DNA of 6,337 bases from a virus. Taxonomy: Duplodnaviria; Heunggongvirae; Uroviricota; Caudoviricetes. Below are positions 1 through 6,337 of this stretch, in pieces. The notes under the pieces are model-generated. The model made no database searches and was not told where the DNA came from. It saw nothing but the letters and a program-made list of their open reading frames with translations. The position numbers and the translations under genes are program-made. Location: the IMG/VR virus record IMGVR_UViG_2693429524_000012. One strand, given 5' to 3'. Within the stretch, counting starts at the first letter, position 1. Each line of letters opens with the position of its first letter.

Positions 1-70
1 CCTGACTTTCCAGAACCATACGAATCGCCCGCTGACGGACTTCGGGGGAAAAACGAGTATTTTTAGTCAT
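1..70 (-). CDS. IS3-family transposase OrfA, N-terminal 23 codons (partial, runs off window)
   Basis: Complement of 1..70 translates MTKNTRFSPEVRQRAIRMVLESQ, with ATG at complement 68..70 and AAAGAGG 8 nt upstream. The N-terminus matches my recollection of IS629-group OrfA. Confidence 0.8.
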   Translation of the reverse strand, partial: MTKNTRFSPEVRQRAIRMVLESQ

Positions 71-124
71 CCTGTTTACCTCTTTCTCAGGGAGTTTAGT
101 CTCCAGGATTTCCGGGGCGGTTCA
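1..124 (-). mobile_element. IS3-family insertion sequence (IS629/IS1203/IS3411-like), left end; element continues beyond the window start
   Basis: Reverse complement of 71..124 reads TGAACCGCCCCGGAAATCCTGGAGACTAAACTCCCTGAGAAAGAGGTAAACAGG, a typical IS3-group terminal inverted repeat (5'-TG...), followed by a GAGG ribosome-binding site and the orfA start. Shares TGAACCGCCCCGG...TCCTGGAGA with the IS end at 6227. Family name is from memory of IS629 termini. Confidence 0.8.
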
Positions 125-139
125 CCGCGAGGAATCAGT

Positions 140-358
140 ATGCAGAAACGAGAACCCGTCATCATCGCGCCAGACTATACCGATGATGAACTTTATGAGT
201 GGATGCGCCAGAAAATTAATGCAGCGCAGGATCTGAAATGGGCCAATGAAGCCAGGGCTAAGCAGGCTGAAAATCTGTCCGCTCTGGAGCAGGATATCAC
301 TAATCTGGAAAAAGCAGCGACATTAAGCATTGCCAGAATGATTACATACCCGCGTTAA
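140..358 (+). CDS. ydfC: Small prophage early-left protein, 72 aa, YdfC-like by length and synteny
   Basis: ATG at 140 with GAGGA (129..133) 6 nt upstream; 72-aa ORF immediately upstream of the spacer and dicF, as in the Qin ydfABC-dicF-dicB-ydfD arrangement. The symbol rests on synteny and length (K-12 YdfC is 72 aa), not on a verified alignment. Confidence 0.6.
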   Translation: MQKREPVIIAPDYTDDELYEWMRQKINAAQDLKWANEARAKQAENLSALEQDITNLEKAATLSIARMITYPR

Positions 359-699: not shown

Positions 700-752
700 T
701 TTCTGGTGACGTTTGGCGGTATCAGTTTTACTCCGTGACTGCTCTGCCGCCC
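700..752 (+). ncRNA. dicF: DicF small regulatory RNA (ftsZ translation inhibitor)
   Basis: Sequence TTTCTGGTGACGTTTGGCGGTATCAGTTTTACTCCGTGACTGCTCTGCCGCCC followed by TTTTT (753..757) matches the 53-nt DicF sequence as I recall it. GC-rich stem (GGCGG...CCGCC) plus U-run gives a terminator-like 3' end. It lies between the ydfC-like ORF and dicB, as in Qin. Confidence 0.85.
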
Positions 753-926: not shown

Positions 927-1115
927 ATGAAAACGTTATTACCAAACGTTAATACGTCTGAAGGTTGTTTTGAAATTGGTGTCACTATCAGTAACCCAGT
1001 ATTTACTGAAGATGCCATTAACAAGAGAAAACAAGAACGGGAGCTATTAAATAAAATATGCATTGTTTCAATGCTGGCTCGTTTACGTCTGATGCCAAAA
1101 GGATGTGCACAATGA
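927..1115 (+). CDS. dicB: Cell-division inhibitor DicB (62 aa)
   Basis: ATG at 927 with GAGGA (915..919) 7 nt upstream. The 62-aa product MKTLLPNVNTSEGCFEIGVTISNPVFTEDAINKRKQERELLNKICIVSMLARLRLMPKGCAQ matches DicB in length and, from memory, in sequence; it lies directly downstream of dicF. The 97-aa ORF-track version (822..1115) is an in-frame upstream extension without an RBS. Confidence 0.85.
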   Translation: MKTLLPNVNTSEGCFEIGVTISNPVFTEDAINKRKQERELLNKICIVSMLARLRLMPKGCAQ

Positions 1116-1303
1116 ATTCAGCATTTGTGCTTGTTCTGACAGTTTTTCTTGTTTCCGGAGAGCCAGTTGATATTGCAGTCAGTGTTCACAGGACAATGCA
1201 GTAGTGTATGACTGCAGCAACCGAACAGAAAATTCCCGGTAACTGTTACCCGGTCGATAAAGTTATTCACCAGGATAATATCGAAATCCCGGCAGGTCTT
1301 TAA
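1112..1303 (+). pseudogene. ydfD: ydfD-like lysis-protein gene interrupted by an in-frame amber codon (TAG at 1202..1204)
   Basis: ATG at 1112 overlaps the dicB stop (ATGA). The frame reads MNSAFVLVLTVFLVSGEPVDIAVSVHRTMQ, then TAG, then CMTAATEQKIPGNCYPVDKVIHQDNIEIPAGL and TAA at 1301..1303. A sense codon at the TAG would give 63 aa, the length of K-12 YdfD. The N-terminal 30 aa are hydrophobic and membrane-anchor-like. Confidence 0.6.
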
Positions 1304-1395: not shown

Positions 1396-3867
1396 ATGAG
1401 TAAAGTCTTTATTTGCGCCGCTATTCCTGACGAACTGGCAACAAGGGAAGAAGGCGCTGTGGCTGTAGCCACAGCCATTGAAGCTGGCGACGAACGCCGT
1501 GCTCGAGCAAAATTTCACTGGCAATTCCTGGAACATTATCCGGCTGCTCAGGACTGCGCTTATAAATTTCTTGTCTGCGAGGATAAACCCGGTATACCCC
1601 GCCCTGCCCTCGATTCCTGGGATGCTGAATATATGCAGGAAAACCGCTGGGATGAGGCGTCTGCTTCCTTTGTCCCGGTTGAGACTGAATCAGATCCGAT
1701 GAACGTCACTTTTGACAAGCTGGCCCCTGAAGTACAGAACGCTGTCATGGTTAAGTTCGACACATGTGAAAACATCACCGTTGATATGGTGATTAGTGCG
1801 CAGGAACTGTTGCAGGAAGACATGGCAACATTCGACGGACATATCGTTGAAGCGTTGATGAAAATGCCAGAAGTTAACGCCATGTATCCGGAGCTTAAGC
1901 TGCATGCCATCAGGTGGGTTAAGCATAAATGTAAGCCTGGTGCCAAATGGCCCGAAATTCAGGCAGAGATGCGCATCTGGAAAAAACGTCGCGAAGGTGA
2001 ACGCAAGGAAACCGGAAAATACACGTCTGTTGTTGATCTCGCCCGCGCCAGAGCCAATCAACAGTACACTGAAAATTCAACAAGAAAAATCAGCCCGGTC
2101 ATTGCTGCCATTCATCGCGAATACAAGCAGACATGGAAAACACTGGATGACGAACTGGCCTACGCTCTCTGGCCTGGTGATGTGGATGCCGGAAACATTG
2201 ACGGCAGCATCCATCGCTGGGCAAAAAATGAAGTTATCGACAACGACCGCGAAGACTGGAAGCGTATCTCGGCATCAATGCGCAAACAGCCTGATGCCCT
2301 TCGCTACGACCGCCAGACTATTTTTGGCCTTGTCCGTGAACGTCCGATCGACATTCACAAAGACCCTGTGGCACTGAACAAATACATTACTGAATACCTG
2401 ACTACAAAGGGCGTGTTTGAAGATGAAGGAACAAATCAGAGCACAACTGATACTCTCTCGTCGCCAGTACCAGAAACTGATGCAGTGGAAACGGCAATTC
2501 CGGACAACGAAAAAACCGAATGCAAAGTGGAAATCGAACCATCTGTAGAGCGTGAGGGGCCGTTCTACTTCCTCTTCACCGACAAGGATGGCGAAAAATA
2601 CGGTCGCGCAAACAAACTTTCTGGTCTGAATAAGGCGCTGACTGCAGGGGCTACTGAAATCACGAAAGAAGAATATTTTGCCCGCAAAAACGGTACATAC
2701 TCAGGTTCACAACAAAATACTGGTGCATCTGACACGACCGCACAACCAGAGCCGGTAAAAGTTACCGCTGAAGAAGTAAACAAAATTATGCAGGCAGCCA
2801 ATATCAGCCAGCCTGACGCCGATAAGTTGCTTGCTGCCTCTCGCGGAGAATTTGTTGCAGGGATTAGCGACCCGAATGATCCGCAATGGGTGAAGGGGAT
2901 TGAAACCCGCGACTCTGCAAACCAGAACCAGCAAGAATCGGAACAGAACGACCAGAAAACGGAACAAAACAGCCCAAATGCGCAACAAAACGAGCCAGAA
3001 ACGAAACAGGTTGAACCAGTAGCGCAACAGGAGCCGGAAAAAGTCTGCACCGCCTGCGGTCAGACCGGCGGCGGCAACTGCCCTGATTGTGGCGCGGTGA
3101 TGGGCGACGCAACATACCAGGAAACATTCGATGAAGAGTATCAGGTTGAAGTTCAGGAAGATGATCCGGAGAAAATGGAAGGCGCTGAACATCCACACAA
3201 GGAGAACACTGGCGGCAATCAGCATCACGATAGCGATAATGAAACTGGCGAGACGGCAGATCACTCAATTAAGGTGAACGGTCATCACGAAATCACATCC
3301 ACCAGCAGGACGTGTGACCATCTAATGATCGACCTTGAAACCATGGGAAAAAATCCTGATGCCCCGATCATCTCAATAGGTGCAATATTTTTCGATCCGC
3401 AAACCGGAGATATGGGACCGGAATTTAGTAAGACTATCGATCTGGAAACTGCTGGCGGAGTCATTGATCGGGACACCATTAAATGGTGGCTTAAGCAATC
3501 ACGCGAAGCGCAATCTGCCATTATGACCGATGAAATCCCGTTAGATGATGCACTGTTACAATTGCGGGAATTTATCGACGAAAACTCCGGTGAATTTTTT
3601 GTTCAGGTCTGGGGAAATGGAGCCAACTTCGACAACACGATTTTGCGCCGTTCATACGAACGGCAGGGGATCCCCTGCCCGTGGCGTTACTACAACGATC
3701 GCGATGTACGCACAATCGTTGAGCTGGGGAAAGCCATAGACTTCGATGCCAGAACGGCTATTCCATTCGAAGGTGAGCGCCATAATGCACTTGATGACGC
3801 CCGTTACCAGGCAAAATACGTTTCAGTTATCTGGCAAAAACTGATCCCGAGTCAGGCTGATTTTTAA
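1396..3867 (+). CDS. Large prophage early-left protein (~823 aa): uncharacterised N-terminal region, Q/N/E-rich linker, CxxC-x7-CxxC zinc ribbon, C-terminal DEDDh (DnaQ/RNase T-like) 3'-5' exonuclease domain
   Basis: Long uninterrupted ORF; preferred start ATG 1396 (GAGG at 1384..1387, 8-nt spacer); alternatives are ATG 1381 and TTG 1360 (ORF-track start). DEDDh motifs are visible: Exo I MIDLETMG (3325..3348), Exo II WGNGANFDNT (3610..3639), Exo III HNALDDARYQ (3781..3810). Zinc ribbon CTACGQTGGGNCPDC at 3046..3090. It occupies the position of ydfE in Qin (truncated by IS2 in K-12) and of exo/recE in lambdoid phages. Confidence 0.85.
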   Translation: MSKVFICAAIPDELATREEGAVAVATAIEAGDERRARAKFHWQFLEHYPAAQDCAYKFLVCEDKPGIPRPALDSWDAEYMQENRWDEASASFVPVETESDPMNVTFDKLAPEVQNAVMVKFDTCENITVDMVISAQELLQEDMATFDGHIVEALMKMPEVNAMYPELKLHAIRWVKHKCKPGAKWPEIQAEMRIWKKRREGERKETGKYTSVVDLARARANQQYTENSTRKISPVIAAIHREYKQTWKTLDDELAYALWPGDVDAGNIDGSIHRWAKNEVIDNDREDWKRISASMRKQPDALRYDRQTIFGLVRERPIDIHKDPVALNKYITEYLTTKGVFEDEGTNQSTTDTLSSPVPETDAVETAIPDNEKTECKVEIEPSVEREGPFYFLFTDKDGEKYGRANKLSGLNKALTAGATEITKEEYFARKNGTYSGSQQNTGASDTTAQPEPVKVTAEEVNKIMQAANISQPDADKLLAASRGEFVAGISDPNDPQWVKGIETRDSANQNQQESEQNDQKTEQNSPNAQQNEPETKQVEPVAQQEPEKVCTACGQTGGGNCPDCGAVMGDATYQETFDEEYQVEVQEDDPEKMEGAEHPHKENTGGNQHHDSDNETGETADHSIKVNGHHEITSTSRTCDHLMIDLETMGKNPDAPIISIGAIFFDPQTGDMGPEFSKTIDLETAGGVIDRDTIKWWLKQSREAQSAIMTDEIPLDDALLQLREFIDENSGEFFVQVWGNGANFDNTILRRSYERQGIPCPWRYYNDRDVRTIVELGKAIDFDARTAIPFEGERHNALDDARYQAKYVSVIWQKLIPSQADF

Positions 3868-3925: not shown

Positions 3926-4129
3926 ATGAGCAACTTATTTTTAACCGAAGATGAATTGCTAATATTAACGGGCTGCAAATATGCAAGCCACCAGCGAAAA
4001 TGGTTAACGGAAAACGGGCTTCCGTTCTATACCAATCGTAGTGGCAAACCGATTGTCAGCCGGGATCTATTTACCTGCAATAAAACTTTACCACCACGCG
4101 AGGTAGAGCCGAATTTTGGTGCAATCTAA
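3926..4129 (+). CDS. xis: Excisionase-like small DNA-binding protein (DUF4224-type Xis), 67 aa
   Basis: 67-aa ORF directly upstream of int and translationally coupled to it (TAATG overlap at 4127..4131). The N-terminus MSNLFLTEDELLILTGCKYASHQRKWLTENGLPFY resembles the small helix-turn-helix proteins usually found upstream of lambdoid integrases. Function is inferred from position and general resemblance. Confidence 0.7.
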   Translation: MSNLFLTEDELLILTGCKYASHQRKWLTENGLPFYTNRSGKPIVSRDLFTCNKTLPPREVEPNFGAI

Positions 4130-5154
4130 TGGGAAGACGAAGGAAAAATCCTGAACACGAAAAACTACCTCCAAATGTATACCCAAATAAATATAGTTAT
4201 GTATGGAAACCAACATCCAGAGAATCTGTCACACTAACCGCCATCAAGGATGGTTTAGCTGCTTTATGGAAAAAGTATGAGGAAACTGTAAATAATCGCG
4301 ATCGTGCAATGACATTCGGTCGCTTGTGGGAAAAATTCCTCGCCAGCGCCTATTACAGTGACCTCAGTCCAAGAACACAAAAAGATTATCTGCAACATCA
4401 AAAAAAGTTGCTTGCCGTATTCGGTAAGGTGCCGGCAGATTCCATAAAACCAGAACACATCCGTCGATACATGGACAAGAGAGGGGAACAGAGTAAAACG
4501 CAAGCCAACCATGAAAAAAGCAGTATGTCCCGCGTTTACAGTTGGGGGTATGAGCGAGGGTACGTGAAGGCTAACCCATGTGCAGGTGTAAGTAAATTCA
4601 AGGCCAAAAACCGCGAACGATATGTAACCGACAAAGAATACCAGGCAGTATTAAGCGTTGCACCTCTTCCTGTTTTTATCGCAATGGAAATTGCCTATCT
4701 GTGTGCAGCGAGGGTTTCCGATGTGTTATCGCTGAAATGGGAGCAGATTGGAAACGACGGAATCTTTATCCAGCAAGGGAAAACAGGAAAAAAACAGATA
4801 AAAGCATGGAGTCCACGATTACAGGCGGCGATCGAAAAAGCAAAACAGTTACCAACATCCGCCTATGTAATCAGTAATCAATACGGCAACCGATATATGT
4901 ACAAAGGCTTTAACGAAATGTGGGTAGAAGCAAGAAATCGCGCAGGCAAAATTTCAGGTATTTTAACCGACTTCACCTTTCATGATCTGAAGGCGAAAGG
5001 AATTTCAGACTATGAAGGAAGCAGTCGGGATAAGCAACTTTTCTCTGGTCACAAAACCGAGGGGCAAGTGCTAATCTATGACAGGAAGGTTAAAGTTTCA
5101 CCGACACTTGATGTCCCGTTACCTGAAAATATTCCAAGAAAATATTCCAAGTAA
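4129..5154 (+). CDS. int: Phage integrase, tyrosine recombinase of the lambda Int family (341 aa); Lys found where catalytic Arg II is expected
   Basis: By-eye alignment with lambda Int catalytic regions: AARVSDVLSLKWEQI (Arg I), QQGKTGKK (Lys), FHDLKAKG (His present, Lys at 4990..4992 where HxLR Arg is expected), GHKTEG (His), LIYDRK (Tyr). The gene ends 49 bp from the 3' end of serU. Confidence 0.9.
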   Translation: MGRRRKNPEHEKLPPNVYPNKYSYVWKPTSRESVTLTAIKDGLAALWKKYEETVNNRDRAMTFGRLWEKFLASAYYSDLSPRTQKDYLQHQKKLLAVFGKVPADSIKPEHIRRYMDKRGEQSKTQANHEKSSMSRVYSWGYERGYVKANPCAGVSKFKAKNRERYVTDKEYQAVLSVAPLPVFIAMEIAYLCAARVSDVLSLKWEQIGNDGIFIQQGKTGKKQIKAWSPRLQAAIEKAKQLPTSAYVISNQYGNRYMYKGFNEMWVEARNRAGKISGILTDFTFHDLKAKGISDYEGSSRDKQLFSGHKTEGQVLIYDRKVKVSPTLDVPLPENIPRKYSK

Positions 5155-5203: not shown

Positions 5204-5293
5204 TTTTGGCGGAGAGAGGGGGATTTGAACCCCCGGTGGAGTTGCCCCCACTCCGGTTTTCGAGACCGGTCCGTTCAGCCGCTCCGGCATCTC
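5204..5293 (-). tRNA. serU: tRNA-Ser (anticodon CGA), 90 nt with long variable arm and encoded CCA
   Basis: Reverse complement is GGAGAGATGCCGGAGCGGCTGAACGGACCGGTCTCGAAAACCGGAGTGGGGGCAACTCCACCGGGGGTTCAAATCCCCCTCTCTCCGCCA. Seven-bp acceptor stem GGAGAGA/TCTCTCC, anticodon loop CUCGAAA (anticodon CGA), class II variable arm, T-loop GGTTCAAATCC. The symbol follows from the anticodon and the adjacent mtfA. Confidence 0.95.
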
Positions 5294-5389
5294 TCCGTTC
5301 AGATGGTTGCCATGATGCCAGGAAATTTGGCATTTTAACAGTCCCTGTCCGTGCAATTTTGTTCAAGTGACGAGTTTGCGAGCAAAACG

Positions 5390-6187
5390 ATGATTAAGTG
5401 GCCCTGGAAAGTACAAGAATCAGCACATCAAACTGCCCTTCCCTGGCAGGAAGCACTATCGATCCCCCTTTTAACGTGTCTGACGGAACAGGAACAAAGC
5501 AAATTAGTCACTCTTGCCGAACGTTTTTTACAGCAAAAGCGGCTTGTTCCTTTACAGGGCTTTGAACTGGATTCATTAAGAAGCTGCCGGATAGCACTTC
5601 TATTTTGCCTACCCGTTCTGGAGTTAGGACTGGAATGGCTGGATGGTTTTCATGAAGTCTTAATTTATCCTGCGCCATTTGTGGTCGATGATGAATGGGA
5701 AGACGATATCGGTCTGGTGCATAACCAACGTATTGTTCAGTCAGGTCAGAGCTGGCAGCAAGGGCCTATCGTTTTGAACTGGTTGGATATACAAGATTCT
5801 TTTGATGCTTCTGGTTTTAACCTGATTATTCATGAAGTCGCTCATAAGCTGGACACCCGTAACGGCGATCGCGCCAGCGGAGTTCCCTTTATTCCGTTGC
5901 GTGAGGTTGCTGGCTGGGAACACGATCTTCATGCTGCAATGAACAACATTCAGGAAGAAATCGAATTGGTTGGCGAGAATGCGGCGAGCATTGATGCTTA
6001 TGCTGCCAGTGATCCTGCTGAATGTTTTGCCGTACTTTCTGAATATTTCTTTAGCGCCCCAGAACTTTTTGCTCCTCGTTTCCCTTCATTGTGGCAACGT
6101 TTCTGCCAATTTTATCAACAAGATCCTTTGCAGAGACTGCATCGCACTAATGATACAGACTCGTTTTCGGCGACGAATGTTCATTAA
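5390..6187 (+). CDS. mtfA: MtfA (Mlc titration factor A; zinc-dependent peptidase), 265 aa
   Basis: Product starts [28 protein letters not shown], contains the HEVAH zinc-binding motif, and is 265 aa, matching E. coli MtfA (YeeI). The ORF-track start at GTG 5351 is an in-frame upstream extension; ATG 5390 is the likely start. Confidence 0.95.
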
Positions 6188-6226: not shown

Positions 6227-6337
6227 TGAACCGCCCCGGGTTTCCTGGAGAGTGTTTTATCTGTGAACTCAGGCTGCCAGATCATCGTTTCCGATGGAAG
6301 CATAATAAGCTTTTTCTGCTTCTGCCGGAGGAGTATG
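6227..6337 (-). mobile_element. IS3-family insertion sequence (IS629-like), right end; element continues beyond the window end
   Basis: From 6227 the sequence reads TGAACCGCCCCGGGTTTCCTGGAGAGTGTTTTATCTGTGAACTC, an IS3-group terminal repeat related to the one at 71..124. The complementary strand encodes a transposase C-terminus. Same orientation as the copy at the window start. Confidence 0.8.
6269..6337 (-). CDS. IS3-family transposase OrfB, C-terminal fragment (partial; frame chosen by motif)
   Basis: Complement of 6272..6337 translates HTPPAEAEKAYYASIGNDDLAA followed by TGA (complement 6269..6271). The TP-x-E-x-E-K-x-YY pattern resembles the C-terminal tail of DDE transposases. A second frame is also open here, so the frame is uncertain. 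Confidence 0.45.
   Translation of the reverse strand, partial: HTPPAEAEKAYYASIGNDDLAA

Follow-up and report, generated by a model that had tools for sequence, protein, structure and literature searches.

An E31amber allele of the prophage lysis gene ydfD beside an intact dicB in a Qin-like remnant at serU/mtfA of Escherichia coli

Introduction

In the DNA analysed here, a stretch of 6,337 nucleotides that we refer to as the window, the reading frame behind dicB is open from its ATG to its TAA except for one in-frame amber codon, and the question arises what this codon represents. It could be an error of the assembly, a stop that is read through or that separates two functional peptides, the ordinary decay of a prophage lysis gene, or the outcome of selection against a toxic product, the last being how a preliminary description of the locus had understood it.

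The YdfD protein, which the restored frame would encode, has been divided into an N-domain (residues 1-28) and a C-domain (residues 29-63), both of which are required for killing, the N-domain alone being inactive in cells (Lu et al., 2022; PMC8835842). In the same study, the deletion of just 1, 2 or 5 residues at either end of YdfD abolished killing on plates, and the N-domain alone was found to bind IspG in pull-downs. According to earlier work, in the form in which it is cited there, the C-domain is essential but by itself shows far less killing activity than the whole protein.

Results

The lesion in ydfD

The frame and its two remnants are made up of the following features.

1112..1303, plus strand: ydfD pseudogene (DUF1482 lysis protein; 63 codons, amber at codon 31), from the translation, Pfam and the comparison with K-12
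1202..1204, plus strand: the lesion, TAG arisen from the Glu31 codon GAG through G→T at 1202, from the comparison with K-12, PhiR42_1 and the sampled loci
1112..1204, plus strand: 30-residue ORF left on the N-terminal side, comprising the hydrophobic N-domain and 2 further residues, from the translation, with the domain boundary taken from PMC8835842
1208..1303, plus strand: residual C-terminal ORF of 31 residues from Met33, its ATG lying 3 nt past the TAG, with a weak SD-like AGGA

The frame runs from ATG 1112-1114 through the in-frame TAG at 1202-1204 to TAA 1301-1303, i.e., over 63 codons plus the terminal stop, and its translation reads MNSAFVLVLTVFLVSGEPVDIAVSVHRTMQ, amber, CMTAATEQKIPGNCYPVDKVIHQDNIEIPAGL, stop. 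Every coordinate that the preliminary description had given for a single frame broken solely by this TAG is thereby borne out. If codon 31 is restored to Glu, the product scores 91.1 bits against the Pfam profile DUF1482 (PF07358; cut-off 25) and covers profile positions 1-57 of 57, and the region 900-1400 is 99.8% identical to K-12, so that the continuity of the frame reflects homology and not chance and the gene is, as proposed, ydfD. A search of NCBIfam gave no model matching the restored protein or either of the two fragments.

Over ydfD, the sole difference between the window and K-12 MG1655 is the T at 1202 in place of G, and the same base alone sets it apart from the ydfD of PhiR42_1, a complete phage of 48.7 kb in which the gene is intact. 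From these two comparisons it follows that the ancestral codon was GAG (Glu31) and that the change was a G→T transversion. The lesion is hence a single point change in an otherwise intact gene, as had been suspected; the argument by which this had been reached, namely that the amber is preceded by CAG, has to be abandoned, as that CAG encodes Gln30 and is irrelevant to the lesion, the mutated codon being GAG.

With regard to the YdfD/DUF1482 family, the gene matches the profile and occupies the expected position, behind dicB with overlapping stop and start and 5' of a ydfE-type exonuclease gene. The unbroken ORF of ~62-67 codons that characterises the family is, however, interrupted by the TAG at codon 31, and we therefore file the gene as a pseudogene member of the family rather than as a functional one.

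The exact 30-residue amber product is on record for 13 public contigs. A 48-residue ORF from ATG 1058 to the amber codon is absent from the protein collection and was thus not counted as a gene. On the minus strand, a 71-codon ORF (1118-1333) overlaps ydfD, in which the amber change is synonymous (CTC→CTA, Leu); nothing points to a gene there.

The prophage remnant and its boundaries

Around ydfD, the window contains the following features.

1..124, minus strand: end of an IS3-family element and end of the contig; the matches to other genomes begin at 123, and the terminal TGAACCGCCCC and the start of the transposase orfA were read directly
140..358, plus strand: ydfC, the first of the dicBF operon genes still present here, matching annotated ydfC in E2348/69, K-12 and CD45
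701..752, plus strand: DicF small RNA gene (Rfam RF00039, 76.7 bits, full length)
927..1115, plus strand: dicB, intact, 62 aa, its TGA overlapping the ydfD ATG as ATGA (Pfam DicB, 136.8 bits; WP_000854559.1 as in K-12)
1396..3867, plus strand: full-length ydfE-type exonuclease gene, 823 aa (Pfam Rv2179c-like, 226.5 bits; YdfE_N and YdfE_C listed)
3926..4129, plus strand: DUF4224 gene in the excisionase position (Pfam DUF4224)
4129..5154, plus strand: tyrosine integrase gene (Pfam Phage_integrase)
5207..5296, minus strand: serU, tRNA-Ser (CGA), the prophage attachment site (ARAGORN, Rfam tRNA)
5390..6187: mtfA, a host gene (Pfam Peptidase_M90; annotation in CD45 and FORC 064)
6227..6337, no strand assigned: second IS3-family terminal repeat at the other end of the contig; the matches to other genomes end at 6227, and TGAACCGCCCCGGG was read directly

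The window contains that end of a lambdoid, Qin-like prophage at serU/mtfA which lies towards the integrase gene. The integrase gene lies beside a tRNA gene, and the early region of this type, dicA/dicC-dicBF, is seen in the closest complete genome, where the window has the end of an IS element. As claimed in the preliminary description, dicB is intact, with an unbroken 62-codon ORF whose product is identical to the DicB of K-12.

At both ends, the contig stops in IS terminal repeats, which is where short-read assemblies break. Bases 1-122 find matches solely at an element of H41 whose annotation is IS3-family transposase. The left IS end stops 15 nt upstream of ydfC and occupies the place that ydfB, ydfA, dicA and dicC have in the closest complete genome; as it stands in place of ydfA, ydfB and dicBp, the genes ydfC-dicF-dicB-ydfD are severed from their main promoter dicBp in the source strain. 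A scan of positions 1-1500 for promoters and terminators returned sites no more numerous than in shuffled sequence.

Several observations on related prophages can be added. The integrase gene is an open ORF of 341 codons in the window (4129-5154), and its counterpart is annotated as frameshifted in CD45 (L236, 16007-17057), in the second prophage copy of FORC 064 (L238, 4817-5867) and in OkiPb01684. In another serU prophage, that of E. coli OkiPb01684 (L237, 3700-5306), an IS3-family element lies beside a partial dicB duplicate, upstream of an intact dicB-ydfD pair. Among the IMG/VR loci that were anchored on dicF (L139-L232), the DUF1482 gene after dicB can be grouped by length into at least three classes (62, 63 and 67 aa), with identities down to ~45% and a GTG start in some copies, and at six of these loci with the exact DicF sequence no recognisable dicB start motif was found downstream. 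The ydfD lengths of 62 and 67 aa are genuine family variants and were not regarded as knock-outs.

Frequency of the amber allele

The window corresponds to a whole contig of a draft assembly (CYFD01000113.1, GCA_001284405.1). Its exact 81-bp amber haplotype was found in 25 complete E. coli genome records, compared with 1,848 for the GAG haplotype, and of the complete E. coli genomes with ydfD, ~3,890 in number, ~25 (~0.6%) have the allele. The region 900-1400 matched at 100% in 23 complete-genome records; no complete E. coli genome matched the full window at 100%. The seven closest full-length matches (99.0-99.2% identity), which represent the serU-mtfA site, all have TAG in that prophage. Among the 118 readable loci sampled from IMG/VR, codon 31 is GAG in 112, TAG in 3-4 and GAA in 2, namely in E. 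albertii and one other diverged locus.

For the identical sequence, RefSeq/PGAP gives the label 'lysis protein YdfD, internal stop' (pseudogene) in E2348/69, CD45 and FORC 064, among others, and a literature search on ydfD together with 'pseudogene' found no account of the E31amber allele. Judged from these genome records, the amber allele is real, heritable and rare, and it is already catalogued as a pseudogene in public genomes.

Haplotypes and spread

The amber codon occurs on two haplotypes. On a K-12-like one it is found in the window, in E2348/69 and in one sampled locus (L089); on a diverged one, set apart by 16 sites that all lie within 930-1129, it is found in a further locus (L037) and in the second copy of FORC 064. 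Between 1130 and 1569, all haplotypes, whether amber or GAG, are nearly invariant in a comparison of the flanking SNPs, and recombination or gene conversion is hence not separable from recurrent mutation by these SNPs.

In E. coli O127:H6 E2348/69, the allele lies beside potC, within a prophage that has another integrase, and it is found next to at least two different integrase modules. In FORC 064 (NZ_CP022664.1, 1970699-1999783), the serU site is occupied by a tandem pair of prophage remnants, both of which contain dicB-ydfD. Since these tandem copies have different DicB alleles and yet the same amber in both ydfD genes, gene conversion between co-resident prophages would be a plausible explanation in this strain. 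Overall, the frequency of the allele in E. coli is low; it is seen chiefly within the serU prophage lineage and also in other prophage backgrounds, which it has probably entered by recombination.

One amber carrier at serU-mtfA (L026, IMGVR_UViG_2690316269_000009) has a second nonsense change, CAG→TAG, at the position equivalent to 1271 of the window (Q54*), as would be expected given that the downstream half is no longer translated after the amber codon.

Other lesions in ydfD and the constraint on the gene

Apart from the amber codon, a number of independent ydfD lesions were encountered, namely +T and -T in the T-run 1143-1147, +C at 1180, a change of the start codon from ATG to ATA at 1114, IS insertions at ~1134 and ~1145, an IS2 near codon 44 and two other truncations. 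The equivalents of 1129-1147 in four loci (L130, L132, L135 and L136) are affected by +T or -T in the run of five Ts and by two separate IS insertions, and this stretch may be a local hot spot for lesions. In a human gut metagenome contig (L131), G→A at the equivalent of 1114 turns the ydfD start into ATA and at the same time the overlapping dicB stop from TGA into TAA, with the consequence that ydfD is lost and dicB is exactly preserved.

A crude pN/pS estimate gave 0.31 for ydfD and 0.49 for dicB. Across ~130 loci, which were drawn by one sequence pattern inside ydfD and one in dicF, 6-8 knock-outs of ydfD were counted vs 1-3 of dicB, a difference that is non-significant, underpowered and partly biased by the choice of loci.

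Discussion

From our point of view, the locus very probably represents an ordinary E31amber nonsense pseudogene of ydfD, belonging to the dicF-dicB-ydfD module within a lambdoid prophage remnant of Qin-like type at serU/mtfA. A G→T change at 1202 would have turned GAG into TAG, and translation coupled to dicB would still begin at 1112 and stop after 30 residues. As such, only the hydrophobic N-terminal domain would be made and the C-terminal domain, with most of the conserved residues, would be lost, whereas DicB and DicF would be unaffected by the lesion. By default, such a change would be put down to neutral decay, the gene being one of a cryptic prophage and normally repressed.

With regard to function, the earlier claim that the product is truncated to its N-terminal 30 residues, i.e., the hydrophobic, IspG-binding domain, stands; for the claimed loss of lysis, the evidence comes from published deletion mutants and not from the amber allele itself. 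Since residues 1-30, which the amber allele leaves, nearly correspond to the ΔC35 construct of Lu et al. (PMC8835842) and since both domains are needed, the allele should be null, and the 30-residue product should not lyse cells. Most of the invariant residues of the family are encoded 3' of the stop, namely C32, E38-Q39-K40, G43, C45, P47 and K50-V51. It is, however, possible that some activity is left, as the C-domain alone retains weak killing in the earlier work, to the extent that it is cited in PMC8835842, and as reinitiation could make this domain. E2348/69 and the other amber carriers are in any case predicted to be without YdfD-mediated lysis upon derepression of dicBF.

Selection against the toxicity of YdfD is possible. 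The more far-reaching explanation that the loss of YdfD was favoured, that the functions of DicB and DicF were kept and that the amber allele spread between prophages for that reason appears unlikely to us, even though several observations can be cited in its favour. Public genomes contain ydfD knock-outs of many independent origins, and dicB is at these loci usually still 62 aa in length, a contrast that is biased inasmuch as the catalogued knock-out loci were selected for a broken ydfD. DicB confers phage resistance, a phenotype for which ydfD is dispensable (PMC6832061). Lastly, the amber codon is found on two haplotypes, next to at least two different integrase modules and in the two tandem copies of FORC 064, a wider distribution than might be expected of a simple neutral mutation that arose once.

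Against this explanation stands, first of all, the rarity of the allele among the complete genomes that carry ydfD. Most ydfD copies, including those of complete phages, are intact, and the pN/pS of ydfD is no higher than that of dicB, which points to a constrained family. The knock-out contrast in the ~130 loci is, as stated above, non-significant and partly biased. The dicBF operon is, furthermore, normally repressed by DicA (PMC10448788), and the cost of an intact ydfD is consequently probably small; in the window, the operon has also been severed from its promoter by the IS element. The view that the amber codon is a sign of selection against prophage toxicity hence finds no firm support in an allele that is rare, a gene family that is constrained and an excess of knock-outs over dicB that is non-significant.

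A second alternative would be a functional split gene, in which translation terminates at TAG 1202 and reinitiates at ATG 1208, such that a 30-residue IspG-binding peptide and a 31-residue peptide act separately or jointly. ATG 1208, the next one in frame, is just 3 nt away from the stop, and the N-domain by itself pulls down IspG (PMC8835842), both of which would fit such an arrangement. We nevertheless consider it very improbable, and the same holds for the idea of a two-peptide form of YdfD that has become a milder modulator of isoprenoid synthesis and spread between co-resident prophages as a tolerated or useful variant. If true, the latter would mean that a lysis toxin has been turned into a mild modulator of isoprenoid synthesis.

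The homologues of ydfD, which would have to share the stop in either a recoding site or a two-gene arrangement, each consist of one continuous ORF of 62-67 codons, in which position 31 is taken by a sense codon that is followed by the invariant Cys32. In distant homologues, codon 31 encodes Glu, Ser or Thr. Given that the stop is thus conserved neither in the sampled loci nor in the distant homologues or the complete genomes, the locus is neither of the two, and the possibility of two short genes with a conserved stop, which had been named at the outset, finds its answer in the same comparison. The sole SD-like element in front of ATG 1208 is an AGGA ~14 nt upstream, which is badly spaced and weak (-4.0 kcal/mol, compared with -5.9 to -6.3 kcal/mol for dicB, ydfD and the exonuclease gene), and any 31-residue product would therefore depend on termination-reinitiation. 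In addition, even small terminal deletions end killing (PMC8835842).

The 31-residue C-terminal ORF has been called by gene callers on 80 public contigs, where it is left by several different upstream lesions. We would argue, from these sequences, that it is a by-product and not a gene, since the same ORF remains after frameshifts, loss of the start codon and IS insertions and since one amber carrier has the second stop, Q54*, within it.

Read-through of the amber codon, whether natural or by a host suppressor tRNA, and often enough to provide functional full-length YdfD, is highly improbable, as the stop is unconserved in relatives, as nothing within the window was found to support it, the only tRNA there being tRNA-Ser (CGA), and as the common amber suppressors of E. 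coli insert Gln, Tyr, Ser or Leu and not Glu. Suppression would consequently yield a missense variant (e.g., E31Q with supE), and the wild-type protein would, other than had been expected, not be restored. A sequencing or assembly error in the short-read contig, with G as the true base at 1202, is hardly conceivable, even for a window that amounts to one whole draft contig, because the same base is present in the 25 independent complete-genome records, in several IMG/VR contigs and in each of the seven nearest relatives, which share the chromosomal site; the concern that the TAG might be an artefact is thereby settled.

The reading of the locus as an ordinary nonsense pseudogene makes it a case that, taken by itself, matters little: it would be one more point-mutational decay of a toxic cryptic-prophage gene beside the intact and useful dicB and dicF. 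The wider interest is of a population-genetic nature, considering the many natural knock-outs of ydfD and the presence of the amber codon on a second haplotype and in both tandem prophages of one strain. A genome-wide count could test whether prophage lysis genes vanish faster than their neighbours.

Comparison with known systems

The closest known system is ydfD of the Qin prophage of K-12 (Masuda et al., 2016; Lu et al., 2022, PMC8835842), with which the window shares the place of the gene behind dicB, the ATGA overlap and the order dicF-dicB-ydfD-exonuclease. The two genes are one base apart, codon 31 being GAG in K-12 and TAG in the window, which leaves residues 1-30 only. The prophages also differ in their site, as Qin lies beside rspB in K-12 and the remnant in the window lies at serU/mtfA, and in the exonuclease gene, which is cut by IS2 in K-12 and full length in the window.

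The pseudogenes catalogued by RefSeq in E2348/69, CD45 and FORC 064 represent the identical allele. Two of these strains differ from the window in the setting of the allele, E2348/69 by its other integrase and its location at potC, and FORC 064 by having two copies, one of them on the diverged dicB haplotype. The other ydfD knock-outs likewise disrupt ydfD, usually with an intact dicB, and leave the same residual 31-residue ORF. They do so, however, by different lesions, and the amber allele alone leaves the frame otherwise perfect.
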